In this document: positions 4,645-22,661 of the stretch, in pieces | Layout: every line of letters starts with the position of its first letter | How positions within the stretch are numbered: position 1 is the first letter of the stretch | Translations under genes and position numbers: made by a program | Virus record (IMG/VR): IMGVR_UViG_3300042695_000536 | Coordinates: 8,285 to 72,284 of that record | From: a virus | Taxonomy: Duplodnaviria > Caudoviricetes | DNA: 64,000 nucleotides | Reading direction: 5' to 3' (one strand) | Notes under the pieces: model-generated | What the model saw: only the letters and a program-made list of their open reading frames with translations | The model's database searches: none | What the model was told of the DNA's origin: nothing

Positions 4645-4645
4645 C

Positions 4646-4896: not shown

Positions 4897-5109
4897 ATGT
4901 TGCAGAGTTTAGAGATACCTGATCCATTTACTGCTTTTCGTATAGCAAAATACGCAAAACAAAAATATGGTGCTAGATATGACTTCTTTAGCGGTGAATG
5001 GGATATGGAATGCGGTGCATGCCAAGAGCCATTAAACGCTCCAACTAAAAAGATATTGACTAAGATCAGGCTATATCATACTCGTAATGAATGTCTTGGT
5101 GGATACTGA
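4897..5109 (+). CDS. Small Zn-finger protein (leaderless)
   Basis: CGAC...H...C; TTGTCA-N17-TATACT promoter ends 6 nt before ATG. Confidence 0.6.
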   Translation: MLQSLEIPDPFTAFRIAKYAKQKYGARYDFFSGEWDMECGACQEPLNAPTKKILTKIRLYHTRNECLGGY

Positions 5110-5255
5110 TGAGCGATATTGATCCTGACAGATCAATGCGTCTTAAATTAGTTATAGAAGAGATGCTTAAAGATATTGATATGAGCGGTGAAAAGTGGAA
5201 TGATCGTGATAAAAACGGGATCCCGTATTGGGAAAAAGAACGGGGTGACAAATAA
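5109..5255 (+). CDS. Small hypothetical protein
   Basis: Manual translation MSDIDPDRSMRLKLVIEEMLKDID...; coupled TGATG and TAATG junctions. Confidence 0.5.
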   Translation: MSDIDPDRSMRLKLVIEEMLKDIDMSGEKWNDRDKNGIPYWEKERGDK

Positions 5256-5482
5256 TGTGGTCATGGGTATTAGCTATTATAGGTGTAACAGGCATATTCT
5301 TTGTTGGTCGAAAGACAATATGGGGATGGTGGGTTTTATTATTTAATGAGGCTTTGTGGATAGCATATGCCCTAATAACAAAGCAATATGGATTTATAGC
5401 CTCAGCAATAGCATATGCAGCAGTTTATATTAGATCTTACATACACTGGTCGAAAGAGCCAGTAAATGAGATTCATCTATGA
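5255..5482 (+). CDS. Small PnuC-like membrane protein
   Basis: Three hydrophobic helices; WGWWVLLFNEALWIAY...YIRSYIHW pattern. Confidence 0.55.
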   Translation: MWSWVLAIIGVTGIFFVGRKTIWGWWVLLFNEALWIAYALITKQYGFIASAIAYAAVYIRSYIHWSKEPVNEIHL

Positions 5483-6531
5483 ACAACGAAACAATTTATA
5501 TATCTATAGCAGCATGCAAAGAAGAGTTTTTAGTTCAAACAATCAAAAGCGCACTAGCTAACGCAGACAATCCAGACCTATTGTATTTTGGAATAGCCAA
5601 TATGGTTATAGATCAAAAAGACTTTTTGTCAGATCCAATATTTAATCATCCCAGACTAACCTATGTAGATATAAAGCATGAGCGCCCACTAGGCACTGGT
5701 ATTGGTAGGATGATGGCCTCTATTATAAATTATAGAGACCATGAGTATTTGCTGCAAGTTGACGCACACAATGTTTTTGAAAAAGGATGGGACACTACCC
5801 TAAAGCAACACTATAACGATCTGTTAAAGATTTGTGATAAGCCTATCATATCTACAAATCCTCTTAGATGGATAGATGGACCAAACAAAGAAGTATTTTT
5901 GCATAACAATTTGAGGGGTATGGCGGTAGACCCACTTGATTTTAAAACTGATGAAAATTTTGGTTCATTAAAAATACAGGTTATTTCCATAAATGCTTCC
6001 TCGTATGCAAACGCTCAAGTACCAAGCGAAGAAATGATGGATTATGCTTTTATTGAGGGTTGTCATGTGGATTGGCAAGAGGGTCAAGATTTTGTTGAGC
6101 ACGGACTGATATTTGCTTCATTTATGTTTACAAAATTTGGTTTTACTCGTGAGCTGATGCATGATCCAGCAAACCCTTTCAACGGTGATCAAATTAATCT
6201 ATCTTTTAGAGCGGGCACTAGAGGATACAGAATGTTCTCAATCAAGAAGTGTATAATGTGGTCTAAAGACAAGTTTAACGATGGTAAGCTTTTGTCTGAC
6301 GATGACTGGAGAACTCTTGATAGAGGCAAAATTGGAAAATTTAACGAAGTTAACTCTCAATTTGATCAAACTGAAATATTTTCTGGGGAATACCTAGGAT
6401 ATTGGGGAGCACCAAACAAGGAATCAATTGCTGAGTATTATAATAAGATAGGGATAGATTTATCTAAATACTTTATATCAAAGAGAGAATACCTGGTTGG
6501 AAAAGGTGAGGGCGGGGGAACCAATGGATAA
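5479..6531 (+). CDS. GT-A glycosyltransferase, Gnt1/GT60 (hydroxyproline GlcNAc-transferase)-like
   Basis: TIYISIAACKE...TIKSALANADNPDLLYFGI...GIGR...EYLLQVDAHNVFEKGWD; DxH metal motif. Confidence 0.75.
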   Translation: MNNETIYISIAACKEEFLVQTIKSALANADNPDLLYFGIANMVIDQKDFLSDPIFNHPRLTYVDIKHERPLGTGIGRMMASIINYRDHEYLLQVDAHNVFEKGWDTTLKQHYNDLLKICDKPIISTNPLRWIDGPNKEVFLHNNLRGMAVDPLDFKTDENFGSLKIQVISINASSYANAQVPSEEMMDYAFIEGCHVDWQEGQDFVEHGLIFASFMFTKFGFTRELMHDPANPFNGDQINLSFRAGTRGYRMFSIKKCIMWSKDKFNDGKLLSDDDWRTLDRGKIGKFNEVNSQFDQTEIFSGEYLGYWGAPNKESIAEYYNKIGIDLSKYFISKREYLVGKGEGGGTNG

Positions 6532-7432: not shown

Positions 7433-7777
7433 TTAGAATGAATCTAGATCCATTATGTATTTGCTATCTCTTACTCTTGTTTCTTCAAGGGATTTAATAG
7501 TTAGGTTTCTATCCACCGCCCCGTATTTTGCCTCAATCATATCGTTGAGAGCATCAGCCAGAAGCAATCCTTCGGATGTGTATCCCTTGTCCCATTCTGA
7601 CTTTAATCTAAGGGAATTGTATTGGATAATATATCTAACTAGTTCCATTAGCCTGTCTTGGGTGTATAAGGTATGTTCAGTTGTTAATACATTTGCCATT
7701 ACGGCAGGGGAGAAGTTAGCATTGTTTAGATAGTCTGTTAGTTTTTCTGCTGCTTTGAATTCGTTCGCTTTAGCCAT
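7433..7777 (-). CDS. Hypothetical early protein
   Basis: ORF with own TGTCAG-N10-TATAAT promoter and AACGAAAGG RBS. Confidence 0.75.
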   Translation of the reverse strand: MAKANEFKAAEKLTDYLNNANFSPAVMANVLTTEHTLYTQDRLMELVRYIIQYNSLRLKSEWDKGYTSEGLLLADALNDMIEAKYGAVDRNLTIKSLEETRVRDSKYIMDLDSF

Positions 7778-7837
7778 TGAGTTCCGCCTTTCGTTTTGAT
7801 TATACCATTGACCACTGACATTTGTAAATGAAGCGAG

Positions 7838-7878
7838 GTTCCTCCCCTTTCCCGTTTTCCCACAGAGAGGAGGAACCC
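7838..7878 (-). terminator. Hairpin, likely terminator of the Lsr2-like gene
   Basis: GGTTCCTCC...GGAGGAACC inverted repeat. Confidence 0.5.
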
Positions 7879-7891
7879 CACACTTAGTTTA

Positions 7892-8044
7892 TTACTTGAC
7901 GTTCTTCTTGTCTGTGAAGACTACGCCCTCTTGTGCTGCCTTGCTGATAACGCCTAGAGCTGCAGCTGAAAAGCGGCCACGCTTGCCCACAGAAATTCCC
8001 TGGGTCTTGAGGTACTCACGAGTTGTTGTTGGTGTTGATGTCAT
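7892..8044 (-). CDS. Lsr2-like DNA-binding mini-protein (50 aa, not in ORF track)
   Basis: MTSTPTTTREYLKTQGISVGKRGRFSAAALGVISKAAQEG...; matches IRxWAxxxGxxVxxRGRI of the Lsr2 C-domain; GAAAGGA RBS and TTTACA-N17-TATAAT promoter upstream. Confidence 0.65.
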   Translation of the reverse strand: MTSTPTTTREYLKTQGISVGKRGRFSAAALGVISKAAQEGVVFTDKKNVK

Positions 8045-8190
8045 TTGTTTGATCCTTTCTAGATCTTTGTTATATATATTATATCCGAATTTCGGCGATT
8101 TGTAAATAGGTGCCGTAAAGCAAAATTTTTGCCCGTGCCCTTAGATTATGACCGTTATGTCCGAATTGTCCATAACGGCCCAACCTATCT

Positions 8191-8373
8191 TTATTCAGTT
8201 GTTAGTTCTTCTACTTGGTATGGCTCTATCTTATCTTTACGATTGGCACCCTTTTGCCATTCTTTCTTAGGTGCGGCTACTGCCTTGTACCATGCCTCAT
8301 CGCTGTCCTTGGCTTCTACTACAATGTAAAATTCCTGAATGGTGTCGCCATATACTTTAAACTGTTTAGTCAT
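8191..8373 (-). CDS. Hypothetical early protein
   Basis: ORF track; coupled to upstream gene. Confidence 0.6.
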   Translation of the reverse strand: MTKQFKVYGDTIQEFYIVVEAKDSDEAWYKAVAAPKKEWQKGANRKDKIEPYQVEELTTE

Positions 8374-8507
8374 AGTTCCACCTGTTCTATCTTGTCTTTA
8401 ATTAGTTTAGCAATGATGTTGTGTGCCTCGATGTTTTCTGTTTCGGACCCACCCCACAAAAGCTTTTGGGCTTTACTAAGTTGATCGTTTAAGTACTTAT
8501 CACTCAT
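8370..8507 (-). CDS. Hypothetical early protein
   Basis: Start trimmed to MSDKYL; overlaps neighbours. Confidence 0.55.
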   Translation of the reverse strand: MSDKYLNDQLSKAQKLLWGGSETENIEAHNIIAKLIKDKIEQVEL

Positions 8508-8826
8508 CTTCATCTTCGTCGTCCTCCTCTTCTTCATCTTCCTCAAACATTGTGTCCACAATGTATTCACGATTCATCATCCATTCAAGGACATCTTCGT
8601 TGTGCTGTTCGGCACCGTACTCCAGAGAGAACCCCATACCAGCCTCCACAGCCTCACAGAGGTGGCCCCACATGTCATCTAGGGTGCAGTTCTGCTTGTA
8701 GGTCTCATCCTCAAATATGTTGTTAATTGTTGACCAAGTCCACAACCAAACTAATGATAGACCTAGGTCAGTGCTGTCTAGAATCTCTAAACACTTGTTT
8801 AGTTTATCTTTATCGTCAGGCTTCAT
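8500..8826 (-). CDS. Acidic hypothetical protein
   Basis: ORF track; poly-D/E C-terminus. Confidence 0.7.
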   Translation of the reverse strand: MKPDDKDKLNKCLEILDSTDLGLSLVWLWTWSTINNIFEDETYKQNCTLDDMWGHLCEAVEAGMGFSLEYGAEQHNEDVLEWMMNREYIVDTMFEEDEEEEDDEDEDE

Positions 8827-9106
8827 TAGCAAACTCCAAATCTATTCTTGATTGAATTGCAAATGATAGTTCATATGTTAGTTGATATAGTTCGACTAGA
8901 GTATCTAGTCGTCCTTCACATTCTGTTCGGACCATAGAATCCATTGCCTCTTCAGACAACTCCTCCTGTGCTAATGCGTCCTTTAAATCTTGCTCGGCAA
9001 TTAGCATTAAGTTCTTTAGTTCTCCGTGCATTATATCTAATCCGCTAACACCCGCATTAACCAAACGCTGTAGGTGCGGAGGGAGCCCAATGTCTTCTTG
9101 ATTCAT
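8816..9106 (-). CDS. Hypothetical helical acidic protein
   Basis: ORF track; GAGG RBS. Confidence 0.7.
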   Translation of the reverse strand: MNQEDIGLPPHLQRLVNAGVSGLDIMHGELKNLMLIAEQDLKDALAQEELSEEAMDSMVRTECEGRLDTLVELYQLTYELSFAIQSRIDLEFANEA

Positions 9107-9309
9107 TATATTACCTCATAGTTCACTAGTGTTGATTCATTTAAGTTGTTTGCCCAATCAGGCTTTCCTTCTACCCAATCATATTCAATATCGATATCTC
9201 CTCCGCCTTCGGCAGGAGCACCAATTGTGATTACCAATTCTGTCCCGTCCTCAAAAAATATTTGTTCAACGGCGGAACGATAAGTAACTTCTCTAGATGA
9301 TATGTTCAT
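9106..9309 (-). CDS. Hypothetical early protein
   Basis: Own promoter (9334-9355) and AACGAAAGG RBS. Confidence 0.65.
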   Translation of the reverse strand: MNISSREVTYRSAVEQIFFEDGTELVITIGAPAEGGGDIDIEYDWVEGKPDWANNLNESTLVNYEVI

Positions 9310-9494
9310 TAATATACCCTTTCGTTATCAATCATTATATCAGTAGCCACTGACAAAATATGTTCCATAGTATCAATGGCACCCATATAATAACTATCTG
9401 ATTCGAAGTATTCATCTTCAGGAATAGGAATATTATTTCTAGCATCTTCTAAATCTTGTTCTAAACTAATCTTATGTATCTTTAGATACTCCAT
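9309..9494 (-). CDS. Hypothetical acidic protein
   Basis: ORF track; start uncertain (MEYLK). Confidence 0.55.
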   Translation of the reverse strand: MEYLKIHKISLEQDLEDARNNIPIPEDEYFESDSYYMGAIDTMEHILSVATDIMIDNERVY

Positions 9495-9817
9495 AAAATG
9501 TGATGACTTAGTCAAAATAACCCTCCGCCCAAAGCCCCTGGAGGAAGTCATTTGTTTTTAACAAGCCTTCATTTAATATTGACTTGTCCATTAAATCGGA
9601 CGGGGTTCTAAGATAAAATAACTTAGCATCATGTACTGAGTTAATCATCTCATCAAGATCATCTTTAGTATAACCTAGCATTCTATTGCCTCCATATATT
9701 TAATCATAGTATTAAGTGTTATATGAATGTGACAATCACAATCATCTGATGTATCTCTATCATCAAAATGGATTAAGTTGTCATCATAGATATAATCAAT
9801 TAGTTCTTGGCTGGTAA

Positions 9818-10030
9818 TCATAGGAGGAATTCATCTCCTTCAATATAACCATAGTACTCATTGTATGATTGTTTTAAGTTATCAGGAGCAAATTGCATGA
9901 ACATATATTCAGCATAATCGCTGCCCTCATCTAAATTTTTGCTGTTCCATTGTTCAAAGAGATGTTGCTCAATATCTACTTGAATTGCTCCAAGGATATG
10001 TTCTCCTACTGTATCTGTAAATGCTTCCAT
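9818..10030 (-). CDS. Hypothetical acidic protein
   Basis: Promoter 10071-10092 embedded in upstream gene; GAAAGG RBS. Confidence 0.65.
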   Translation of the reverse strand: MEAFTDTVGEHILGAIQVDIEQHLFEQWNSKNLDEGSDYAEYMFMQFAPDNLKQSYNEYYGYIEGDEFLL

Positions 10031-10764
10031 TATGCTTCCGCCTTTCTATATTCGGGTACTTTAGTGTCTAAGTATATCTTATGGGTCTGACAAATTGCTA
10101 CAGCCTCTAGGTCAGCATTGCCTAGCCAGTTGCAGTTGCCACAGATTTCACCGCAGTCATTGTCGCAGTATTCCATTTGGTCAGTTGCATCACAATCACG
10201 GCACATGTTATCGTATTCTGATTCTGATATAACTTCTCCACGGAGGAATTCCATTTCCCCACCCCAACCTGTTTCTTCTTCATATGATAAAGTAAATAGT
10301 AGTGTTGGGTATTGTGCAGATAGTTTAGAGATAGCACCAAGAGGTCGTGACCATGCAGTGTTAAAGTTGTAATGAACTACATAGTTCTCACCGTTTTCTG
10401 CTTCTTCAATAGTTGTATCAGGATACTTATTACCCTCGGCTACAGCAACATCCCACTTGGTTCCCCACTCACGCACATTAAAGTTGTACCAGTCATTGGT
10501 CTCAAACTTCATTGCCTGAGAAAAGTCGGTGGAACGAGGAGGCTGTCCATGATATACCTCATCAGTAATACCAGCATCTCTATAGTTATAGATATTATGA
10601 AAAGCAAAGATAGGATTAACATACTTAGTCTGCTTGACATCATATGATAAATCACCTACTGCAGTAATAGAATAAACAAATGGCTTATTCATTTGTTTGA
10701 TTAGAGATTTTACTTGCTCAGGATTACCTTCAATAGTTAATCCATTAAATACCCAATTTGGCAT
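10030..10764 (-). CDS. Api92/YubB (DUF1281) ferredoxin-like domain protein with C-terminal Cys cluster
   Basis: MPNWVFNGLTIEG...WYNFNVREWGTKWD...FNTAWSRP...YEEE.G..G; true start follows promoter and RBS. Confidence 0.8.
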   Translation of the reverse strand: MPNWVFNGLTIEGNPEQVKSLIKQMNKPFVYSITAVGDLSYDVKQTKYVNPIFAFHNIYNYRDAGITDEVYHGQPPRSTDFSQAMKFETNDWYNFNVREWGTKWDVAVAEGNKYPDTTIEEAENGENYVVHYNFNTAWSRPLGAISKLSAQYPTLLFTLSYEEETGWGGEMEFLRGEVISESEYDNMCRDCDATDQMEYCDNDCGEICGNCNWLGNADLEAVAICQTHKIYLDTKVPEYRKAEA

Positions 10765-10947
10765 TTTATATCCTTTCGTTGATATGTTCCAATTATACAA
10801 TGGACCACTGACATTTGGAATAGCAAATAGGTGTGTTTCACACCACATTTTCCAAGCTATGTGGTCAAGATCACACAAATTCCTGGGAAAATTAACTTGA
10901 CGTCGTAAAACAAACATGCTACCCTCAAGTCTTTGCGGGCAATAGAA

Positions 10948-10970
10948 AACCCCCAGCTATGCTGGGGGTT
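10948..10970. terminator. Intrinsic terminator-like hairpin
   Basis: CCCCAGC-TAT-GCTGGGG with adjacent A-tract (U-tail on - strand). Confidence 0.6.
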
Positions 10971-11092
10971 ATGAATATGGCTGCTGATTTCCAACGAAAG
11001 AAATAAACCGCTTTACTTAGCGCCTGGCCCTAAAGACTAATAGACGCACCATTTCATTTCCTATTAAAACCAGGACCAAAGTCCTAGTCTAA

Positions 11093-11458
11093 TTATACCA
11101 TAACTAGTCGACTGTATTTATCTACGAATGCTGCAAGGGACGAGGTAAACACTACCGTGCTCAGGTCCTCTTCATACAGTGTAAAAGTTTGATTGGACCA
11201 ATCAATAACAGGCACCTTATGCTCATTATCTCCTAATTGATTAATGTAGATACCCCAGCCTGTTTTTTCAGTCCAGTCTTCTCCAATTAGATTAGATATA
11301 GCAATGCGTGTTGCATATGATTCATCCTGCCAGCGAGGCTCTGCAGCCTGCACAGCATTGGCCAACTTGGCTAGCATATTATGCCCAGCCCAGTGTCCAT
11401 ATAGAAATAGTACATTCTCCTTGGAATCTCTGAATCCAAAGTTTGCTCTGTCGCCCAT
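11093..11458 (-). CDS. Conserved phage protein (MGxR...YxHW type)
   Basis: MGDRANFGF...FLYGHWAG. Confidence 0.7.
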   Translation of the reverse strand: MGDRANFGFRDSKENVLFLYGHWAGHNMLAKLANAVQAAEPRWQDESYATRIAISNLIGEDWTEKTGWGIYINQLGDNEHKVPVIDWSNQTFTLYEEDLSTVVFTSSLAAFVDKYSRLVMV

Positions 11459-11459
11459 T

Positions 11460-11669
11460 TTATTCCGCCGTTTCTAGTTGAGGGATTGCTTCTTCCGTTT
11501 TGTTTAATTCTATCACTTCGTATGCGACCTTGTCAAGGCCACGCTTGCTTGCGTTGTAGTGGTGACCGCAAAAGAAAAGCTCACCATCTACTAGTTTAAC
11601 CATATACATTGCTTGGGCTGTGCCACATTGGTCACATGCTATCCATCTTGTTAGATCTTCCATTGTCAT
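11460..11669 (-). CDS. Small Zn-binding protein resembling an actinobacterial CDxC...LxFCxHH family
   Basis: CDQCGTAQAMYMVKLVDGELFFCGHH. Confidence 0.65.
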   Translation of the reverse strand: MTMEDLTRWIACDQCGTAQAMYMVKLVDGELFFCGHHYNASKRGLDKVAYEVIELNKTEEAIPQLETAE

Positions 11670-11821
11670 AGTGCTCCACCTTCAATCATCTCAGAAAGAC
11701 GATCAAGGATCCAGGAATCAATGTCGTTGATATCAATCTCTGATAACTTTTCCATGATTTCATCACGGGCAAACTTATACCCATCGTCCCAACCATCTTT
11801 ATAGTCTGACATAATTTCTCC

Positions 11822-12025
11822 TTAATAACCTGTGGTTTCGTAGTCTGATATGTAAGATTCAGTTAAGTTATACTTATCACGAATTCTACTTACTTTCTCA
11901 ATACTACCAGTTCCAATGTTGAATGTCAACGGTGACATTGCTTGCGGGTCCAGCCCAATAATTTGTGCATCCCAATAGGCCATCTCCATGGATAGCCTAT
12001 CAGGAGCAGTCAACTCAAAATACAT
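11822..12025 (-). CDS. Hypothetical early protein
   Basis: ORF track; coupled TAATG junction. Confidence 0.65.
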   Translation of the reverse strand: MYFELTAPDRLSMEMAYWDAQIIGLDPQAMSPLTFNIGTGSIEKVSRIRDKYNLTESYISDYETTGY

Positions 12026-12699
12026 TAGCAGTTCTCCCTAATGTTGCAGATTTCTTGGTCAACAACTTCAATGTTGCCATTGTGTGAATCAGCATAAAGA
12101 GCATCTTCAATTTCTGAATCTAAGTCAAAATGAGTATCCTCAAGTAGGTTGACTGAAATAGTTCCGCTAACTTCAATAGATGCAGACCATTCAATCTCTC
12201 TAATTAATTCAATCTCAAGCGCTTCTGCAATTGCTTGCAAAGTTTCTTGGTCTTCTGAATCAGCATATGCCTCTGAAATAATATCTTTAACTAAGCCAAT
12301 CTTATTCTGTAAAGATGAGACTGCCTTAGAATTTGTGCGACCATTATGCAGTTCGTATTCAATGTTGCGAACTTTATCTGTAGCATATTCAGCATCCGAA
12401 TAACCACGGATTACTTTGTATGTAACTAATTGGTCAGGGTTGTACTTCTCTGCATCTGATAGAGGCAGGTTTTCTACTGTCATTCCGTCCATATTGCTTC
12501 CTTCTTTCGTTTGGTTTAAGGATGTAATTGTAGCATGCTCCACTGACACTAATGTGGTCTTACGGCCACACGGGCATGTGAGTTCTGTCACACCTGATGG
12601 AAAGCCAAATCCATCAGATGATGTTAATTGGATTAAACAATCACACTCATCTGGGTCACAGACAAATGTGTACACGCTTGATACTAGTTCGTTGGTCAT
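12025..12699 (-). CDS. Leaderless Cys-rich-N-terminus protein with nested in-frame start at 12492
   Basis: ATG 12699 is 7 nt after TATAAT; internal promoter 12527-12548 and ACGAAAGAAGG RBS precede Met at 12492. Confidence 0.65.
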   Translation of the reverse strand: MTNELVSSVYTFVCDPDECDCLIQLTSSDGFGFPSGVTELTCPCGRKTTLVSVEHATITSLNQTKEGSNMDGMTVENLPLSDAEKYNPDQLVTYKVIRGYSDAEYATDKVRNIEYELHNGRTNSKAVSSLQNKIGLVKDIISEAYADSEDQETLQAIAEALEIELIREIEWSASIEVSGTISVNLLEDTHFDLDSEIEDALYADSHNGNIEVVDQEICNIRENC

Positions 12700-12800
12700 G
12701 TACAGAATTATACAGGACCCCACTGACATTTACAATAGATTCCAGGGAATTTAAATGTGAGTCGTAACACACTTTTTGCCCCCTTAGCTTTGAGGGCGCT

Positions 12801-12877
12801 TGGCGATCCATAACGGACTTGAACCGTCGGCCTCTACCGTGACAGGGTAGCGCTCTAACCAACTGAGCTAATGGACC
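12801..12877 (-). tRNA. tRNA-Asp (GTC)
   Basis: GGTCCAT-TAGCTCAGTTGGTTAGAGC...CT-GTC-AC...GGTTCAAGTCC...ATGGATCG-CCA cloverleaf. Confidence 0.95.
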
Positions 12878-12924
12878 AAGAAAAAATGTGAGCAGTTTTA
12901 AATCTTGCTCAGGATTATTTTTAT

Positions 12925-13932
12925 TTAGAAAGCAGAAATCAATTTCTTGATTTTGTTTTTCTCAGCGGTTAGCACTGGGTCAAATCCTGATGCGCCAGCC
13001 ATAAGCGTTTCAGAATTTCCACGACCTGAGCGATAGTAATCAAGGCGTTCGGTGAGAGCATTAAACGCACCCCATTTAGTTCCCTTGATGTTAGCATTAG
13101 TTGGTGAGTTATGGTAAAGGTCATCAAGTAGCACGACCTTATTCTCCCATTTAGTTAGCGCAACTTTAGCAGCATCATCAGCAGGCTTTGGATAAATTGT
13201 GTGAATTAACTTTGAGAATTCAGCATCAGTAATTGACTGAGAATAAAGTGCTTGCGCTTCCTTCTCGAATTCATCAAAGTAACCAAGAGCAAGCCCAAGA
13301 GTTTCACGAGCAACTTGAATGCGACCTTCAACAGATTGCGTATGACGAATCTTGAAAGATTGCTTAGCGTTACGCATGGCAAGATTCAATGTGTTTTGGC
13401 ATACAACACGAACAGGAGTAACAGCAGCCTGAACAGCAACTGACCCGTCATGTGATGTCCATACAATTAAATAGAGTTTAGTTTCATCGTTGGCACCTTG
13501 TGGGTCAAGAACCATTGTGCGAGGAATATCAACAGTGCCGAATACAACTTTGCCCTTTTTCAATGAGCCAGCAGATTCCCAACGGCAGTCAGCGTTCGCA
13601 TCATGAATAGCATCAGCGAATGCGAATAATTCTTCATTCTGTACAGGCTTGTAACGCTTGCCAACAGTGGCAAGAACATCAGTTCCCTTATTGAATGGAT
13701 TGTCACGAATGACAAGAGATGCGGTAGAGACATCATTCCAAGATTCTGGAATGTGCTCAGTGATTGGAGATAGACGAACATTCCAATTTGCCAACTTTGC
13801 TTCTTCAAGCATTAGGGCGGTAGTAACTTCTTCATCTTTTGTGAAGATGCGATTTGCTAGGTTGTGCCAAGCAGGTGCGCCACGGAGAGCGAAAGCAACT
13901 TCGCCGTTTTCCATTTCTAGATTGTGAGCCAT
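12925..13932 (-). CDS. DUF932/DUF945 (LGT_TIGR03299) family protein
   Basis: MAHNLE...PAWHNL...VGKRYKPVQNEE.F.F...ESAGSL..GK.VF...SHDGS....TPVRVVCQNTL...HT...GTKWGAFNALTE..D. Confidence 0.9.
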   Translation of the reverse strand: MAHNLEMENGEVAFALRGAPAWHNLANRIFTKDEEVTTALMLEEAKLANWNVRLSPITEHIPESWNDVSTASLVIRDNPFNKGTDVLATVGKRYKPVQNEELFAFADAIHDANADCRWESAGSLKKGKVVFGTVDIPRTMVLDPQGANDETKLYLIVWTSHDGSVAVQAAVTPVRVVCQNTLNLAMRNAKQSFKIRHTQSVEGRIQVARETLGLALGYFDEFEKEAQALYSQSITDAEFSKLIHTIYPKPADDAAKVALTKWENKVVLLDDLYHNSPTNANIKGTKWGAFNALTERLDYYRSGRGNSETLMAGASGFDPVLTAEKNKIKKLISAF

Positions 13933-14132
13933 ATATTTTTTACCTTTCGTTTGATTAGTCATAAGTATAACAGGTGCCACTGACATTGTCTAGGATTAGA
14001 TACAATATGTCCGAATTGATCCATGTGATTAATCTCACAAAATTCCAGGGATATCCACAGGCAGTCGTAACCCTGTGGATAACCCCTTACCTTTACGGGC
14101 CAGCTGCAGGATATGCAGCTAGTGTTAGATCT

Positions 14133-14387
14133 TTACAGACCTAACTCATCCCTGGTTAATTGATTCTTTCGATTGAAGTTAATAACTTCGGCGGGAAGAT
14201 AAAGAGCAGTTGTCTTAGTCTTCTTCAATGTATCATACACATAAGCACGAACATCACCAAAAAAGTTACGGCGATTAGAGAATGCTAATTCAGTTAAGTA
14301 TTCCTTATCAACGCCTTGCTCTGAATAAATTGTTACATCATTTAACTTGTTCTCATCATAGATTTCTACTCTGAAACGATTTTTCAT
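14133..14387 (-). CDS. Hypothetical early protein
   Basis: ORF track; AACAAAGG RBS. Confidence 0.7.
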   Translation of the reverse strand: MKNRFRVEIYDENKLNDVTIYSEQGVDKEYLTELAFSNRRNFFGDVRAYVYDTLKKTKTTALYLPAEVINFNRKNQLTRDELGL

Positions 14388-14458
14388 TTTGTTGCCTTTG
14401 TTAGTAGTTGTCCCAAAAGGGAGAGCAGTTTGGCGACATACTCAGGTCGTTGGATTAT

Positions 14459-14881
14459 TTACAGATAACGAGCAACCGCATTGTAAGTGCTGGTATTAAC
14501 AACTTCCTCATCTGTCATTTTAAGAATACGAATTGCGTTTTCCATTTCCTCTTTCATCTCATTGTATGAGTGGCGGTGGATTACTTCGTAGTCCTTCTCA
14601 GGTTCAGCAGGGAAGTTTCCTTCCTTTGTGATGATGTCAAAATCAACATTGAGAGTGTTGTTCCAGTTGCGATAGTTTGTGCGTAGGTTTTCAGCCTTTG
14701 AGAAGTTAGCAATAGCCCACTTTCCAATTTCCTTTTTCCACGCTTCTACCTGCTTGTTATACTTTGCTTCGTTTGCTTCTTGTGATGCGAAGTCTTTATT
14801 TAGTTGTGCCAACTTTGTTTCCAAAGCCTTGATTACTCGCTGAGTTGGGATTTTCACCGAGATTGCTTTTCCTCTAGCCAT
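14459..14881 (-). CDS. Hypothetical coiled-coil early protein
   Basis: Own promoter and RBS. Confidence 0.8.
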   Translation of the reverse strand: MARGKAISVKIPTQRVIKALETKLAQLNKDFASQEANEAKYNKQVEAWKKEIGKWAIANFSKAENLRTNYRNWNNTLNVDFDIITKEGNFPAEPEKDYEVIHRHSYNEMKEEMENAIRILKMTDEEVVNTSTYNAVARYL

Positions 14882-14967
14882 TTGTTTCCTTCTTTCGTTG
14901 TGGGTTGGGTTGATGAAGTAATTATAGCAGGGAGGTCTGACATTTCTGCGACCCCCCTGCCTTTAGA

Positions 14968-15150
14968 TTATACGCCTAGTAGTGTTTGAGCGGATACGGA
15001 AGTCCAACGAGTTTCCTTGTTTGGCATTTCCAATAGCACACGCACCGAGCCAGATGTTTGTGGGTGGATTTCTTTAATCACACCTGTTTTCTTTGACTTA
15101 AGGGTAGTGAATAAATCGCCTACCTGATACAACTTGTCGTTGATTGTCAT
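14968..15150 (-). CDS. Small SH3/KOW-like protein
   Basis: YQVGDLFTT...TGVIKEI...VRVLLE...RWTSV; own promoter. Confidence 0.6.
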   Translation of the reverse strand: MTINDKLYQVGDLFTTLKSKKTGVIKEIHPQTSGSVRVLLEMPNKETRWTSVSAQTLLGV

Positions 15151-15247
15151 TTATTGCCTCTTTTCTTTGTTAGGTTGGTAATTATAGCATTGGGGTCTGA
15201 CATTAGTCTAGCCCTATCTCATTATTTGAGAAAGTTATTGTGTGACC

Positions 15248-15511
15248 TTAGTCACTTTCAGGTAGCCAAGCGTCTAAGTGGTGCTGTTCGATAATAGCCC
15301 ACGCTGGCGCATGAGAGTCACCCTTATAAGATACGCCTTCAGGCATTTCGATCAACTTATTATAATCCTCATCATAGTAAGCATCAATAGCCTCGATACA
15401 AGGCTGTACCATAGAAAGTGGGACGGGCGGGTAATGATTACCCTGTAAGTGATAACCTAGTGCTACCTCTAAATCTAATTCAGTTAAATCTAATGCTGTA
15501 TTGTATCCCAT
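15248..15511 (-). CDS. Conserved hypothetical phage protein
   Basis: HLQGNHYPPVP...IIEQHHLDAWL. Confidence 0.75.
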   Translation of the reverse strand: MGYNTALDLTELDLEVALGYHLQGNHYPPVPLSMVQPCIEAIDAYYDEDYNKLIEMPEGVSYKGDSHAPAWAIIEQHHLDAWLPESD

Positions 15512-15714
15512 TATTCTGCCACCTTAAGAATTGCGTATGAGCCATTAGCATTTATCTCATCAAGAATTGGTTGTAGTCGGCTACCGACTAAATCTTTTAG
15601 CATTGACTCTAGCATAAAGATACGAGTATCCTCATCAAGCATTTCTATTTGCTTAGTTACTGGATGGCCGTCCTTAAACTCTGTTACGAACTTCAGGTTG
15701 TGTTCTATTCTCAT
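15511..15714 (-). CDS. Hypothetical early protein
   Basis: Own promoter and AACGAAAGG RBS. Confidence 0.7.
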   Translation of the reverse strand: MRIEHNLKFVTEFKDGHPVTKQIEMLDEDTRIFMLESMLKDLVGSRLQPILDEINANGSYAILKVAE

Positions 15715-15993
15715 TTGTTGCCTTTCGTTGTTGGTATAAGAGTATTATAGCCTATGCCACTGACAAATTGCTCAACACGCCCAAGCTTTATCTAATTTAT
15801 TTTGTGATTAATCTCACAAATTCCAGGGGGTTGTGGATAACGCCCGTAACCCTGTGGATAACCCCGCAGCTTTACGGGCGGGCAGCGTCATTGATCAAAT
15901 TTATTTTTATGTTTTATTTTTCTAAAATATTTTTTCTTATTGCGTACAGGTTGCGCCGCATTACTGCGACGCAATTCCTGTATGCGTTTAACT

Positions 15994-16185
15994 TTATCTC
16001 GAAGTGAATTTTGTGACATGGTATCCACACGCTTTATGAAATCGGTTTACATCAAATCGCTCATTATCTTTTGCGAACATAACTGCGAAATCATTTACAA
16101 TTTTAGAAAATAAAGCAGGGTGCGCCTTATCACTAGCAAAGTTTAAAATTTCTGCTACTGCGACATAATCTTTTCTTGTCATCAT
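15994..16185 (-). CDS. Small phage protein (MTRKDY...DNxRFD..RF..ACG type)
   Basis: Similar to the C-terminal half of 42829..43293. Confidence 0.75.
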   Translation of the reverse strand: MMTRKDYVAVAEILNFASDKAHPALFSKIVNDFAVMFAKDNERFDVNRFHKACGYHVTKFTSR

Positions 16186-16388
16186 TTTGTTACGACCTTT
16201 CGACCTTCACGATAAAATGTTTTTGTGTACATCTTGCCAGTTGGCGTCATTAAATTTACAGTTGAGTATTCGTTAGCAAATCCCCAATCGGTAAATGAAA
16301 GAAATGCGGTGAACGCTTCTAAAGCGTCATCATAGTTTTTATTCCAATGGATAGGCTTGCTATCGTAGGAAATTGTTATTTGGTACAT
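16182..16388 (-). CDS. Small phage protein (DWGFA motif)
   Basis: Similar to the N-terminal half of 42829..43293. Confidence 0.75.
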   Translation of the reverse strand: MYQITISYDSKPIHWNKNYDDALEAFTAFLSFTDWGFANEYSTVNLMTPTGKMYTKTFYREGRKVVTK

Positions 16389-16528
16389 TAGTCATTTTCC
16401 CCGTTCTTAAATAAAGAGCCATCTTGACAATCGCAAGGCTCGCAATCAAAATCATTATCATCACCAAAAAAGATTACGCCATGACCTAAGCAATCTTGGC
16501 AATCTATTGTTAATACTGAGTTAATCAT
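16388..16528 (-). CDS. Small Zn-ribbon protein
   Basis: Manual translation CQDCLGHG...CEPCDC. Confidence 0.55.
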   Translation of the reverse strand: MINSVLTIDCQDCLGHGVIFFGDDNDFDCEPCDCQDGSLFKNGEND

Positions 16529-16692
16529 TAGTGTTGTTCCTCGCAATCTTTGTCATAGTCAAATCCGCAAAAGTAGCAACCCATAAATTCTAGGTGTTCG
16601 ATACAGTAATACTTAAATTGACTTTCATCACAACAAAAATGTTGCTCGTCTGCGATTTCATAGAAATCGGTTTTGTCGATTATGTTTAACAT
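16528..16692 (-). CDS. Small Cys/His-rich protein
   Basis: Manual translation HFCC...CIEH...CYFC...C; own promoter and RBS. Confidence 0.6.
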   Translation of the reverse strand: MLNIIDKTDFYEIADEQHFCCDESQFKYYCIEHLEFMGCYFCGFDYDKDCEEQH

Positions 16693-16744
16693 AGTTTTCC
16701 TTTCGTTTGTTTATTCTGTAATTATAGCGGATAGCACTGACAAA

Positions 16745-16954
16745 TTAGTCAGATACCCTAACCGCAATGGTTGCCCAAAAGTTTTTGATCCCACGGGTTG
16801 GGCGAACCTCGATAGCGTAAGCCTCTAGGTTTTCTCCGTACCAAATTGCGTCACGCTTTGTTGCGTATACGATAGTTCCCTCGTCATGGCGAGAGTGTGA
16901 GCGATAGTGTTTTCCCTCTAAGAGGCTTTCGATAGTGTATGCTTTTGCTGACAT
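16745..16954 (-). CDS. Hypothetical early protein
   Basis: Own promoter and RBS. Confidence 0.7.
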   Translation of the reverse strand: MSAKAYTIESLLEGKHYRSHSRHDEGTIVYATKRDAIWYGENLEAYAIEVRPTRGIKNFWATIAVRVSD

Positions 16955-17279
16955 GAGTTGTCACCTTTCGTTTGTTGATACTGGCAATTATAGCCTATGC
17001 CACTGACATTTTCACATTACTGGCGAGTAATTCCACATTTTGAGACGCTCAAGTCGTGTGATAAAAATCACAAAATCTCGGGCGTGTCGCAAATTCCAGG
17101 GGTTGTGGATAACCCCCGTAACCCTGTGGATAACCCCGCTCTTTTGCGGGCGCATCAACTTTTGTCAAGTCGACACGCCGCTGTTTATTCGAAATCTTTA
17201 AAAATTTCTTCAAGCTTTAGAATTTGCTCATCTGTTAAATGATCAATTTCAATTGCTTTTTCAAATCCAAAAAAATCCA

Positions 17280-17474
17280 TTATTCGTTTTCCATTTCTGC
17301 TAAATAATCTTCATGTTCAATTAGTCCGATTGAAAAAGCGATTGGGTCGCAACATTCCAAAATTTCGGCGGGAGTAAAAGTAGAGTAACCAATTTTTACA
17401 GTAGGGTAAACATCATTTAGTAAATCAATAAAGCTTTCTTTAATTTCTAAATCTTTTTCGAAATCTGATTTCAT
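17280..17474 (-). CDS. Small acidic phage protein
   Basis: F.DLLNDVYPTVKIG..TF.PAEIL..CDPIAF. Confidence 0.7.
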   Translation of the reverse strand: MKSDFEKDLEIKESFIDLLNDVYPTVKIGYSTFTPAEILECCDPIAFSIGLIEHEDYLAEMENE

Positions 17475-17769
17475 TCGCTTAACTCCAATTCGGTATAATC
17501 AACAACAATAAAATCAAGTCGCTCTAATGGAACAACCTTTAACCATGATAAGGCAGACTCAAAATCATCTGCCTCAACAGTAACGGATAAATCAAAATTA
17601 AATACAGCCATTTAGTTAGTTTCCTTATCTTTTAGTATGTTTAGAATAATCTCTAATTGCTTAGTGCTTAGTAACGCTTGAGCGCAACCCCACTTAAAGG
17701 CTAAATCCATTTCGCCATAGTGCTTTTTAGCAAGAGTTGTTATTTCTTGCGTTACCTCAAAATTAGTTT

Positions 17770-17955
17770 TCATTTAGTTAAACTCCAATCGGAATAAAAT
17801 GGTAAGCGGTCATAGTCATCATAGAAATAGACTCTATCTATGTTCTGCTCGCATGTTTCGCAGAAAGTGTATTCGACATCTACACCCATGCCATAGGTAG
17901 TAGATACGCTCTCCATGTGTGGAGTGTGTGTATGTGTATTTGTTAGTGTAGTCAT
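17770..17955 (-). CDS. Small His/Cys protein
   Basis: HTPH...FCETCEQNI; own promoter. Confidence 0.6.
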   Translation of the reverse strand: MTTLTNTHTHTPHMESVSTTYGMGVDVEYTFCETCEQNIDRVYFYDDYDRLPFYSDWSLTK

Positions 17956-18308
17956 AGTGACCACCTTTCTTTTTCGTTATGGTAGTATTTTACCACGGGG
18001 GTCTGACATTTATCTACCTACTAGCCAGTAATTCCAAATAATGAGACGCTCAGCCTATGTGATAGTAATCACAAAATCTCGGGCGTGTCGCAAAACCTGG
18101 GGGTTGTGGATAACCCCCGTAACCCTGTGGATAACTCCCGCAAGTACTTGCGGGCCAGCTTGACAATGTCAAGCCGACACGCCGTTAGGCTAGTGTGAGT
18201 TAGCCCACTCTCGGTAATCCGCTACGATCTCACGCCATACAAGGCGGAGCATAATTAGGGCGGGAATACCAATACCTAATTGGACTAGTGTAGTAAGTAG
18301 TCTATTCA

Positions 18309-18500
18309 TTACTCTCCCCATGTATCATTAGTATTAGTAGGCAAGCAATTGCCTAGTGTTCGATTATTCTTTACTCTTTTATAAATCTTATAACCGATAA
18401 AAACAACGGAGGACAAGATAAGGAAAGCCCATGATAGGGATAAGTAAATAAAATCACCCATGTCAAGCATAAAGCCGTATTCATTTAGTTCGATAGTCAT
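18309..18500 (-). CDS. Small membrane protein
   Basis: Single TM helix followed by basic residues; GAGG RBS. Confidence 0.6.
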   Translation of the reverse strand: MTIELNEYGFMLDMGDFIYLSLSWAFLILSSVVFIGYKIYKRVKNNRTLGNCLPTNTNDTWGE

Positions 18501-18776
18501 TACTTATTTACCTCTACTTCTCTAATGTTGTAAGTGAAACCCTTACCTAGTTTATTTAGTTCGTTCATTACTGTTAGCAATTCATCTGCGCTAGTAGCCT
18601 TGTTATTAACGCTTAGTAGTTGGCTACCTTGCCAAAGTGTGTAAGTGATTATCATTAGTAAGTATCCTCTACGCCTAGTTCATAGGACTTGTTTAGTAGT
18701 GTTAGTAGTTCAGGTGTTACAGTAAATCCGTTAGCCTTAGCCATGTCGGCTAGTGTATCCATTGGGTACATCATTA

Positions 18777-18959
18777 TTAGTTCTCCCATGTTAGTTGGTA
18801 AAGTTTTGCTAGTGCCTCATCATCTGAGTCATCAAATTCATCTAGTGGAGGTTGTTCCTCATCTACCTCATCAAGGTATGCGTATGCGTCTGCGACATCT
18901 GATTGGATAGTATCCCATTTAGATACGCTATTAGTTTCGTATGAGTATGCGTATGACAT
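18777..18959 (-). CDS. Small highly acidic protein
   Basis: D/E-rich; GGAG RBS. Confidence 0.6.
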   Translation of the reverse strand: MSYAYSYETNSVSKWDTIQSDVADAYAYLDEVDEEQPPLDEFDDSDDEALAKLYQLTWEN

Positions 18960-19165
18960 TATTTATTCATCTCCTTAGCGATTGTATCGGACTTACGCAA
19001 AGCCTCTAGGGCTATTGCTAGGGAGGCAAGGCGTTGCGCCTCTACCATTTGCTTGTATTCATCTAGTGTCATTTATTCTGACCTTTCGTTGTTGTTATTC
19101 TGTAATTGTAGCATGGGGGTCTGACAAATTGGGGAGGTTGGGCTAGCGTGTCGCTGTGAGGTGTG

Positions 19166-19336
19166 TCACATGCCTCTCTTGAGGCGAATAGCCTCGACCT
19201 GTGCTAATTGCTCAGGTGTAGCGTTGCGGAAAGCCTGTACGCTCTCTCTAATCCAAGGTGACTTAGCCATAGCCTTTTCGTGAGCGATAGCGTTTCGCTC
19301 TTGTTGTTCTTTTCTAATTCGTTCTAGTGTATTCAT
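19166..19336 (-). CDS. First gene of the - strand early cluster, hypothetical
   Basis: Promoter 19372-19393 and ACAAACGAAAGG RBS before MNTLER. Confidence 0.65.
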   Translation of the reverse strand: MNTLERIRKEQQERNAIAHEKAMAKSPWIRESVQAFRNATPEQLAQVEAIRLKRGM

Positions 19337-20055
19337 TAGATGATTACCTTTCGTTTGTTTGTTATACCTTAAGCATAGCATGGGGGTCTGACAAATGTCT
19401 AATCCAAAATGCGTATAATTCGGACATTGTGAGATGTATCACAAAAAAATCGTGTGAGATGAGTCACAAATGACCATTCATTATGGGCGCACTATCCGAA
19501 ATGTCCGTTTTGCCTAAATTGTGTATCATACATGTAAAAAATATATTAACATTTTCTTAAATCTGAAAAAGCAGTCAACTAGAATAAATGGCGGGGAATA
19601 TGGTAAGATACTACTTGATCAACATAGCTGTTATATAAGCTATTGACTTTGGTAAAAGTAAAATGCTACACTTAGTTTGCTTTGTGGGGGGCTTACCCTG
19701 AAACTCAATATGTACCAGATAACATCTGTGGATATATGTTCCAGGAATTGCTTTCTCTATCTTTCCAAAAAGAAAAAATTTGGGGGGTAGGGGGGCTTTC
19801 CTAAAATCTAATATACCCAGATAAAAAGTTAAAAAAGATAAAGAATATAAGACAAATAGGTGATAAGTATGTGTAGAGAATGTGGAAACTGTTCAAGACA
19901 ACATACTAGAACGATAGATGATTCTATGGATGAAGTCCTAGATTCAATTTTTAAAAAAACGGGGGTAGAACAGTGAAACTTCTTTTGGCTATAGCCATAG
20001 TAACTGTAATGACTTTTACCCTTGGTATCATATATCAGATAATAGGCTAATATAA

Positions 20056-20130
20056 GGGCCTATAGCTTAACCTGGTTAAAGCAATTGTCTTATATGCAAT
20101 CGACTTTGGGTTCAAATCCCAATAGGCCTA
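20056..20130 (+). tRNA. tRNA-Ile (TAT anticodon), no encoded CCA
   Basis: GGGCCTA/TAGGCCT acceptor stem, ATTGT-CT-TAT-AT-GCAAT anticodon arm, TTGGG-TTCAAAT-CCCAA T arm. Confidence 0.85.
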
Positions 20131-20256
20131 CTTGGAGGAAATATGGATAATGTAAGAGTGCCAGATGAATGGCCAAAAACTAAGAAGGCTAAATTCCTTC
20201 TTGTATGCTTTGGCGTTATAGTACTATTTCTTTTTTTTAATTTATAGATCTACTTG

Positions 20257-21365: not shown

Positions 21366-22016
21366 TTAATTTTTGTAAAAGTTAGGTATTTTTATAAAAG
21401 CTGGAAGTACATATCTTGTAGGTCCTTCTGTTACAAATCTTACTCCATGCTCCCATTCTGGATCCCCACCAAATAGTAAAAGATCTCCAGGTTCTGGTTT
21501 CATTTCAAATCCTTTTTTAGCCCAAAAAATTTCACCACCGTTATAATCATTATTTATGTATATAACTCCAGCGTGTTGTATGGATTCATCTGTATTTTGA
21601 TCATGATGAGATACTAGCTGTACCCCATCATACATTCTCTGTATAAAATAAAATCCACTTAGTAAAAGCCCTTCTTTGGTTTTTTCAAGCACATCATTAA
21701 ATCTTTTATCTATTCTTCTATGTATATCTGAGTTAATGAAGGATACGTTTTTATCATTCCAGTTTAATGTTACTTCGTATAAACCTTCTTTAACTAAATT
21801 TTCTATATCTTCCCTGCCAAATTTTTCTTTTGTAAAAACCTTTAGCTGGTCTGTATACCACTTATCCCATTGTTCTTCAGAGGTGTTATTTATTATACCC
21901 ATGTATTCTTCAATGTCTTCTTTCGTTATAAAGTTTTTAACAACAAGCAATCCATCAATAGGAGTTTCTACGGTATATCCGCTTTCTTCAAATTCTTTTT
22001 TCATCCAAGTGGTCAT
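21366..22016 (-). CDS. Prolyl-4-hydroxylase-like 2OG-Fe(II) oxygenase
   Basis: HHD...VIYINNDYNGGEI...KPEPGDLLLF...HGV...RY. Confidence 0.85.
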   Translation of the reverse strand: MTTWMKKEFEESGYTVETPIDGLLVVKNFITKEDIEEYMGIINNTSEEQWDKWYTDQLKVFTKEKFGREDIENLVKEGLYEVTLNWNDKNVSFINSDIHRRIDKRFNDVLEKTKEGLLLSGFYFIQRMYDGVQLVSHHDQNTDESIQHAGVIYINNDYNGGEIFWAKKGFEMKPEPGDLLLFGGDPEWEHGVRFVTEGPTRYVLPAFIKIPNFYKN

Positions 22017-22028
22017 AGTATTATTGTA

Positions 22029-22661
22029 TCATTCCTTCCACATAATAGCTTGGCCAGTAGGTAGCTCAAGTATATTGTGATCTTCAAAAGCGTCTTTTAC
22101 AGCTTTTCTAGATCCTTCTGTTTTGTAAGAACCGTAGTCATCACATATTAATACTCCGCCAGAAACTATTTTAGGCCAAAAATATTCTATTGATTCTTTT
22201 GTTGGCTCGTATAAATCTACATCTACATGTACAAATGAATACTGTTTTTCTTCAAGGTCTTTAAATACTTCTGGTATCCAGCCTTTTTTTAATTCTATAT
22301 TTTTGTATCTAGATAGGTTATTTTTTGCCCACGCCATTTCAGATTTTAGTTTTACTGTTTTAAAGTATTCTGTATCAAACTCTCCTGGCTCAGAAACGCC
22401 TTCCCAAGAATCAATTCCTATAAAAGATTTGTTGCAAAACTCGGCGGTAAAGAACATTGTCATTCCAGCATAAACACCAGTCTCAGCAAAGTTTAAATTT
22501 GGATTGATTACAGATTGATGTTTTGCCAGCTGTCTTAATATAGATATTCTTCCGTACTGAGCATTGTCCATAGAATTCTGTATGTTACATATTAAATTAA
22601 AATCATTATGTAGTTTTACAAAATCTTGGTCTTCAGTCCATCTGCTTAAATATGAGTCCAT
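22029..22661 (-). CDS. TylF/MycF (macrocin O-methyltransferase)-like methyltransferase
   Basis: AETGVYAG...DSWEG...KGW..E.F...FVHVDVDLYEPT...GGVLICDDY. Confidence 0.85.
   Translation of the reverse strand: MDSYLSRWTEDQDFVKLHNDFNLICNIQNSMDNAQYGRISILRQLAKHQSVINPNLNFAETGVYAGMTMFFTAEFCNKSFIGIDSWEGVSEPGEFDTEYFKTVKLKSEMAWAKNNLSRYKNIELKKGWIPEVFKDLEEKQYSFVHVDVDLYEPTKESIEYFWPKIVSGGVLICDDYGSYKTEGSRKAVKDAFEDHNILELPTGQAIMWKE

Follow-up and report, generated by a model that had tools for sequence, protein, structure and literature searches.

In a 64-kb stretch of viral DNA (hereafter the window, positions 8285-72284 of the 72,284-nucleotide IMG/VR record IMGVR_UViG_3300042695_000536, which is rated 60% complete), we found 15 copies of a bipartite promoter-like motif, TGTCAG-N10-TAnnnT, all on one strand and distributed along a single block of small genes. 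The motif has the geometry of the promoters on which the DNA-damage activator PafBC of actinobacteria acts, and the virus itself is a low-GC (guanine plus cytosine) uncultured freshwater or estuarine actinophage. From the sequence, we consider it probable (roughly 60%) that the 15 sites are PafBC-class promoters read by the PafBC of the host together with its SigA holoenzyme, which would tie the whole block to the alarm raised in the host cell by single-stranded DNA (ssDNA).

An exact pattern scan of the window recovered 17 matches to TGTCAG-N10-TAnnnT, all on the minus strand, where 0.76 were expected (standard deviation 0.87, largest value 4) from 100 dinucleotide-preserving shuffles. The same 17 sites, and none in the forward direction, were present in the full record, and 15 of them fell within 7799-19393. 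An earlier interpretation made from the letters alone (the sequence-only reading) had listed these 15 minus-strand sites, with TGTCAG, a spacer of exactly 10 nucleotides (nt) and the -10 boxes TATAAT, TATACT, TACAAT, TAAAAT and TATGCT, and all of them were recovered as described. Between 7000 and 20000, the TGTCAG hexamer itself occurred 17 times on the minus strand, 15 times within the motif, and never on the plus strand; the distance to TAnnnT was 10 nt in 15 cases and 9 or 11 nt in none. Allowing one mismatch in TGTCAG produced no further copy except three unconvincing ones. The claim that the structural region is free of the motif proved nearly right: the two remaining matches, at 32153 and 32285, are identical copies with a TACGCT box, lie antisense within a tail-fibre-like open reading frame (ORF) of 1067 amino acids (aa), and are probably a coding repeat.

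The sequence-only reading had also placed each site directly upstream of a gene start and three of them inside coding sequence, and both points held. At 14 of the 15 sites, a GAAAGG-like ribosome-binding site and the ATG that opens an ORF follow, with the ATG 21-40 nt past the -10 box. At the other one, 12707-12728, the ATG lies only 7 nt past the -10 box, and its transcript is therefore a candidate leaderless mRNA. Of the three embedded sites, two overlap the ORF upstream in its 3' part, and the third, at 12527, precedes an in-frame internal start. An extended -10 (TGn) is present at nine of the 15 sites. According to the triplet that follows TGTCAG, the sites fall into flank classes, with six of the 15 in an ACC subclass. 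The block and its predicted promoters, numbered in the direction of transcription, are as follows.

7433-19393, minus strand: gene block of about 12 kb, with some 40 small ORFs grouped into about 15 transcription units (from ORF lists and Pfam)
19372-19393, minus strand: predicted promoter 1 (most upstream), ACC class, -10 TATGCT, Shine-Dalgarno sequence and ATG at 19336
19105-19126, minus strand: predicted promoter 2, ACC class, -10 TACAAT, ATG at 19072
17987-18008, minus strand: predicted promoter 3, ACC class, -10 TAAAAT, ATG at 17955
16987-17008, minus strand: predicted promoter 4, TGG class, -10 TATAAT, ATG at 16954
16721-16742, minus strand: predicted promoter 5, TGC class, -10 TATAAT, ATG at 16692
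15744-15765, minus strand: predicted promoter 6, TGG class, -10 TATAAT, ATG at 15714
15181-15202, minus strand: predicted promoter 7, ACC class, -10 TATAAT, ATG at 15150
14921-14942, minus strand: predicted promoter 8, ACC class, -10 TATAAT, ATG at 14881
13964-13985, minus strand: predicted promoter 9, of the DUF932 gene, TGG class, -10 TATACT, ATG at 13932
12707-12728, minus strand: predicted promoter 10, TGG class, -10 TATAAT, ATG at 12699, candidate leaderless
12527-12548, minus strand: predicted promoter 11, TGG class, -10 TACAAT, inside ORF 12025-12699, in-frame ATG at 12492
10792-10813, minus strand: predicted promoter 12, TGG class, -10 TATAAT, ATG at 10764
10071-10092, minus strand: predicted promoter 13, ACC class, -10 TATACT, in the 3' end of ORF 10030-10764, ATG at 10030
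9334-9355, minus strand: predicted promoter 14, TGG class, -10 TATAAT, in the 3' end of ORF 9309-9551, ATG at 9309
7799-7820, minus strand: predicted promoter 15 (last), TGG class, -10 TATAAT, ATG at 7777
12925-13932, minus strand: DUF932 gene (Pfam)
10030-10764, minus strand: Api92-like gene (Pfam)

Most of the small block ORFs matched no Pfam family, and the genes of the block probably serve host takeover or establishment. The block is covered, at 88-99+% likeness, by contigs assembled from four RNA-library runs, which give neither transcript starts nor strand and may include DNA. The ORF in 12025-12729 is served by two of the predicted promoters, of which 12707-12728 would yield a leaderless product of 224 aa, and the internal 12527-12548, with its ribosome-binding site, an in-frame N-truncated form of 155 aa.

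Two papers describe the reference class. The PafBC (RecA-NDp) promoters of mycobacteria and other actinobacteria are read by "sigma adaptation" (PMC8635444; PMC11804915). Their in vivo consensus is tGTCgg(N10)tA(N3)T, over 22 nt; its upstream part, the "-26 element", spans -23 to -28, and a -35 consensus is lacking. The GTC triplet is read by the helix-turn-helix of PafB, and PafC contacts sigma region 4 (PMC8635444). PafBC is activated by ssDNA bound to its WYL domains, and a reconstituted transcription assay is available (PMC11804915). The phage sites have the same geometry as this published consensus, as the sequence-only reading had proposed: both are bipartite elements of 22 nt with an invariant GTC (within TGTCAG at 15 of the 15 window sites), with 10 nt between the hexamer and TAnnnT, in the window as in the 80 relatives described below, and with no -35 consensus. 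The phage -10 boxes (TATAAT, TACAAT, TATACT, TAAAAT and TATGCT) are of the housekeeping-sigma type, and the exceptions to the missing -35 are single promoters, namely that of the DUF932 gene with its TAGACA and the 7 of 15 sites that pass a loose sigma-70 scan. Unlike host PafBC promoters, those of the phages are gathered as 14-17 copies in one block of a lytic-type genome, before small genes of unassigned function; their -10 boxes are far nearer to consensus than that of host recA (a weak TACCTT), and a TGTCAG-ACC subclass comes in addition.

The motif was conserved in relatives of the phage. A search with the DUF932 protein confirmed 265 IMG/VR stretches, and we analysed the best 80 of these 265. 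In each of the 80, the gene strand carried 6-18 motif copies and the opposite strand 0-1, for a total of 1157 sites (1100 with TGTCAG and 57 with TGTCGG); the spacing was 10 nt at 1100 sites, 9 nt at seven and 11 nt at two. In five relatives that are 96-100% complete (115-117 kb), we counted 17, 16, 14, 16 and 14 sites in a single block of about 11 kb, and 1, 1, 2, 0 and 2 outside it. Among the 1157 sites, the commonest -10 boxes were TATAAT (438), TACAAT (283) and TATACT (212), and 311 sites belonged to the ACC subclass.

In the 734 distinct sites, information was found only in AAW-TGTCAG-(T/A)(G/C)(G/C), in the TG at -15/-14 and in TAtaaT, with TGG/TGC or ACC as the triplet after the hexamer. 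The T, G, T, C and final G of the hexamer were present in 100% of them and the fifth base was A in 94% and G in 5%; G occupied -14 in 78%, and none of the six would-be -35 positions exceeded 0.45 bit. The orthologous promoter of the DUF932 gene, for which 54 distinct sequences were available, had TGTCAG conserved at 100% and a mid-spacer conserved at 44-61%, which is the footprint of two separately selected elements. This pattern bears on the idea that the repeats are not promoters at all but scattered copies of a mobile or recombination cassette with a chance resemblance to one. Some intergenic cassettes upstream of the sites are indeed repeated (the TTATCCACA pairs and the TGTGA-N6-TCACA palindromes described at the end), but conservation is limited to the bipartite elements and does not extend to the spacer, every copy has the orientation of the genes and precedes a start codon by 21-40 nt, and three stand inside coding sequence. 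We find this explanation hardly credible.

The phage is an uncultured relative of the large Streptomyces siphophages, as judged from its sequence. Its structural genes are of the siphophage type, and its portal is 57-59% identical to those of Streptomyces phages of 131 kb, the nearest cultured relatives. The DUF932 protein, encoded about halfway along the block, shares 49-50% identity with the product of gene 2/3 of the same phages, in which the homologue is leftward at 1.2-2.4 kb, with two matching places per record, and the block as a whole is homologous to the terminal leftward block of one Streptomyces phage, NootNoot. A nucleotide search of a phage collection with this phage gave no match. 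GC content ranges from 32 to 42% along the window (38% overall); the phage is therefore not a mycobacteriophage, an origin that we also ruled out from its nearest cultured relatives. Integrase was not among the families displayed by Pfam scans of the phage ORFs (one of these displays covering 25 of 31 families). A WhiB gene scoring above the Pfam cut-off was present in all five near-complete relatives, and none was found in the phage's own, 60% complete, record. The WhiB of the relatives and the kinship with Streptomyces phages point to an actinobacterial host.

Candidate host genomes were reached via an Actinobacteria 16S primer, and their motif counts were set against a control made with the reversed pattern.

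Microbacterium (G006): 53 motif copies, 1 in the control
Streptomyces (G010): 76 motif copies, 6 in the control
Mycobacterium (G009): 43 motif copies, 18 in the control
Glaciihabitans metagenome-assembled genome (G008): 26 motif copies, 8 in the control
Ilumatobacteraceae metagenome-assembled genome (G007, Acidimicrobiia): 4 motif copies, 13 in the control, no enrichment

Among 401 genomes of the class of G006, many of the larger ones were enriched (for instance G404, with 259 copies against 6 in the control). Overall counts in the genomes of 1.2-1.5 Mb did not exceed the control, so that in these small genomes only the placement of the motif before recA, carD and island genes argues for function. 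We examined recA in 29 small genomes and in Streptomyces, and located the gene in 27 of them (26 small genomes of 1.3-1.5 Mb and Streptomyces). Exactly one motif copy was found upstream of recA, on the coding strand, in 27 of 27 loci. Since the motif also stands just upstream of recA in the Microbacterium, Glaciihabitans and Mycobacterium genomes, it was recovered in all 30 genomes of the class Actinomycetes that we examined; it was not found upstream of recA in the Acidimicrobiia genome G007. The small genomes, which may be Nanopelagicales-like to judge from their size and GC, share with the phage the TGTCAGTGG...CTG form at recA, most commonly as TGTCAGTGGCGCCTGCTACCTT. In one of them (G289), the form is TGTCAGTGGCACCTGTTACCTT, the first 16 nt of which are identical to the phage site 13964-13985, the only differences falling inside the -10 box; since TGG and CTG belong to the consensus, the identity says little more than that both sites follow it.

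The small genomes also encode a candidate reader. Two adjacent same-strand WYL ORFs of about 300-345 aa, arranged as a pafB-pafC-like tandem, were found in 25 of the 26 small genomes; in the one pair that we examined, one protein combined HTH_PafC (113.8 bits, cut-off 32) with WYL and WCX, and its partner had WYL and WCX. Candidate host lineages of the phage are thus equipped with pafBC-like genes as well as with the recA motif. Conserved sites also precede carD and a LysM-protein gene in the small genomes, the latter presumably recalling the damage-induced ChiZ of mycobacteria.

In one small genome (G149), 9 of 15 motif hits are crowded at 439-471 kb (L276 and L277), each directly before an ORF, with several ORFs only 6 nt from the -10 box. 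The ORFs of this stretch encode a trypsin-like peptidase, TPR proteins, a subtilase, a C5 DNA methylase and an OGG-like glycosylase; a gene for an SNF2 helicase lies close to them. The stretch has the look of a variable or defence-island-like region under PafBC-type promoters, and similar crowding was seen in G289, G242 and G258.

These islands lend some substance to another explanation, that the phage sites are mainly PafBC decoys. About 15 sites per genome copy would then draw PafBC and polymerase away from the damage and island promoters of the host during replication, and would serve transcription of the block only secondarily. The motif does front defence-island-like genes in small Actinomycetes genomes (a methylase, proteases and TPR proteins, near an SNF2 helicase), and the copy number per phage genome is high and invariant. 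However, every phage site is built as a working promoter, with a -10 box, a short leader, a ribosome-binding site and an ATG on the gene strand, all of which would be needless in a pure decoy, and we regard this explanation as very unlikely.

We searched for a factor of phage origin that could read TGTCAG in the phage record and in the five near-complete relatives (six records). No WYL domain and no sigma region 2 were found in them, and a PafB-like protein from a candidate host, used as query, had no match at E<=10 in any of the six. The sequence-only reading had left room for a WYL or sigma-like gene elsewhere in the phage, and none was detected in this set. PF00940, the T7-type RNA polymerase, had no match in the six records either, a result of little weight as the control matched nowhere. 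In five more distant, fragmentary relatives, WYL was not found and WhiB was present in two. As no PafBC-like protein was found in the phage, the host PafB-PafC is the likeliest reader of TGTCAG.

In the mechanism that we propose, each site would combine a housekeeping-sigma -10 box, often extended by TGn and lacking a -35, with a TGTCAG hexamer at the published position of the -26 element. The hexamer would be read by the host PafB-PafC heterodimer docked on RNA polymerase with SigA, i.e., by sigma adaptation, and the block would be switched on or boosted when PafBC is in its ssDNA-bound active state, by the same signal as host recA. We infer PafBC binding, PafBC-dependent transcription, the source of the ssDNA, the early timing of the block and the identity of the host. 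The proposal of the sequence-only reading that the phage uses the host damage sensor thus gained support from the motif geometry, the confinement to one block, the phage factor searched for and not found, and the recA and pafBC-like loci of candidate hosts, while dependence on PafBC itself is predicted from sequence, and early expression and a trigger in the incoming phage DNA are conjectural.

Several observations weigh against PafBC as the reader. The phage -10 boxes are near-consensus, with TGn at 9 of 15 sites, and promoters of that kind can work without any activator; those of the phage may thus fire without PafBC. The DUF932 promoter carries a conserved TAGACA at the -35 position, and at 7 of the 15 sites a weak -35-like hexamer is picked up by the loose sigma-70 scan. 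Candidate hosts seldom carry the ACC subclass: it makes up 1 of the 74 hits listed for five small genomes, although 4 of 43 in the Mycobacterium genome. Nothing but low GC, WhiB and the motif itself ties the small genomes to the phage, a partly circular argument; a WhiB protein query had no match in the genome contigs, and a search for WhiB homologues returned only phage-type WhiBs among the best 120 of 629. All five near-complete relatives encode a conserved ORF of about 50 aa with a region-4-like helix-turn-helix (15.8-21.8 bits, cut-off 24.1), which could be a phage factor. Finally, nine cultured actinophages had 0-4 hits each and no cluster: Bxz1, TM4, D29, Omega, Barnyard, Corndog, Rosebush and phiC31 had 0-1 each, and NootNoot had four, none of them in its terminal block. 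Without a cluster in these nine phages, NootNoot as the nearest cultured relative included, the trait is not general.

Part of this would be expected if the sites were strong extended -10 promoters read by SigA alone, with TGTCAG as the operator of a non-WYL regulator encoded by the phage, which might shut the block off later or act like MotA of T4. The near-consensus, often extended -10 boxes fit SigA alone; the sub-threshold helix-turn-helix ORF of the five relatives, the many small block ORFs without a Pfam family and the rarity of the ACC subclass in candidate hosts fit a regulator of the phage's own. Against such a regulator, the hexamer, the 10-nt spacing, the TGG flank and the TGn match the motif upstream of recA in the 30 Actinomycetes genomes, and the fixed 10-nt register suits a polymerase-docked factor better than a free operator. 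Moreover, the motif already stands before the first unit of the block and no other promoter type is enriched, the loose sigma-70 scan giving 52 promoters in the block against 45.4 +/- 7.4 in shuffles, without an excess of the canonical type. The architecture also recurs in a group of phages without detectable protein similarity in the block (see below). We take a phage regulator to be unlikely, though less so than the decoy or the cassette.

If PafBC is the reader, a broader proposal can be made, which we put forward tentatively and would not ourselves bet on: a large and abundant clade of lytic phages that infect low-GC aquatic Actinobacteria would have handed control of its takeover block to the ssDNA-sensing PafBC of the host, "riding the alarm" without any phage-encoded transcription factor. 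In such streamlined hosts, the same promoter type fronts recA and a variable, defence-island-like stretch; the alarm of the host would simultaneously switch on the phage genes, possibly anti-defence genes, and 15 strong sites per genome copy may also draw the activator away from the host.

The distribution of the motif among other phages was explored with an IMG/VR scan for TGTCGGTGG-N4-TGN-TAnnnT, which returned 119 stretches. At least two sites of the loose motif on one strand were present in 76 of the 119, and at least 10 in 30 of them, whereas in a mis-spaced control scan (11 nt) 110 of 119 stretches had no loose-motif site. Most of the stretches from the right-spaced scan were relatives of this phage, with 47-100% protein identity. 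Three overlapping contigs (L307, L389 and L390; GC 45%) had no tblastn match (E<=1e-5) to the 102 ORFs of the phage in these loci, and carry 6-8 one-strand TGTCGG(G/T)G-N-TAnnnT sites per locus. The leader layout is the same, with an AAAGGGA-type ribosome-binding site and an ATG after each site, and a TTG stands 8-9 nt upstream.

The terminal block of NootNoot (Stanwilliamsviridae) resembles that of the phage in having a homologous DUF932 gene (49-50% identity) and many small leftward genes, and both place a repeated promoter and a GAAAGG-type leader before almost every unit. The NootNoot block (L009, 1-10000) instead uses TTGnnn-17/18-TAGACT promoters, and TGTCRG-N10-TAnnnT is absent from it. 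In about 7 of 21 upstream regions (counted by eye), TGTCCy stands exactly 10 nt before TAGACT, the GTC register being kept.

Two kinds of known systems are related to the one proposed here: phage genes tied to the damage response of the host, and promoters in which an element of the -30 region replaces the -35. Known phages supply sigma factors, polymerases or activators of their own, or place their genes under the LexA repressor of the host. LexA-controlled switches free genes of temperate phages from a repressor, as a rule at a single promoter or a few. The phage block would likewise be linked to host DNA-damage signalling, but through an activator-type promoter repeated 15 times over the whole block. 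The middle promoters of T4 depend on "sigma appropriation" by MotA/AsiA, with T4 bringing its own activator and co-activator. They resemble the phage sites in having a -10 box and a specific element near -30 in place of the -35, with one promoter type per temporal gene class. Unlike in T4, the five near-complete relatives yielded no candidate activator related to WYL, PafB or sigma proteins, in searches that did not address the MotA and AsiA families by name. MotA/AsiA is named for comparison in PMC8635444.

Our literature searches found no paper on phage promoters read by PafBC among the main texts of the best-ranked papers on PafBC and phages (regulon tables in supplements might list prophage targets), in line with the sequence-only reading, which knew of no such use of host PafBC by a phage. 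PMC12848934 cites a 2025 study (Rafique et al.) on pafBC and mycobacteriophage resistance. If the proposal is correct, placing a whole lytic-type block on the promoter class of a host damage activator would be a different phage solution and the first natural non-host use of sigma adaptation, and phage infection would be connected directly with the PafBC response of actinobacteria, just as links between WYL regulators and phage defence are emerging. The 734 distinct natural variants would then be a resource for dissecting recognition by PafBC. These phages are abundant, with 265 relatives confirmed in IMG/VR, and the candidate hosts are among the commonest freshwater bacteria; the finding is unexpected, widespread in nature and directly testable.

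Other features lie in or around the block. TGTGA-N6-TCACA palindromes (CRP/GlxR-like) occur eight times at 12577-19468, against 0.08 expected; their centres are 36-68 nt upstream of TGTCAG at seven promoters, and the palindrome 5' of the DUF932 promoter is conserved across relatives. The DnaA-box-like TTATCCACA occurs seven times on the minus strand at 14074-18134, against 0.69 expected, mostly in pairs separated by 21 nt, within the intergenic cassettes that precede four promoters. A tRNA-Asp(GTC) gene lies within the block at 12801-12877 (minus strand), just upstream of the predicted promoter 12707-12728, and a tRNA-Ile(TAT) gene at 20056-20131 (plus strand), in the non-coding stretch of 0.9 kb that heads the block. 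The similarity of ORF 14459-14881 to "Anthrax-tox_M" (E 0.0074, 16 bits against a cut-off of 25) was sub-threshold and taken as noise.

Elsewhere in the window, the ORF at 54530-64000 (>3157 aa), which runs off the end of the record, encodes the tape measure protein, and its identification as a virion RNA polymerase was ruled out. Pfam scans of 1-6531, 21366-22661 and 36543-42829 matched nine ORFs to the 2OG-Fe(II) oxygenase family PF13640, and also revealed a GlcNAc-transferase-like gene, methyltransferases, a radical SAM/SPASM gene, a thioredoxin and a divergent GroES-like gene.

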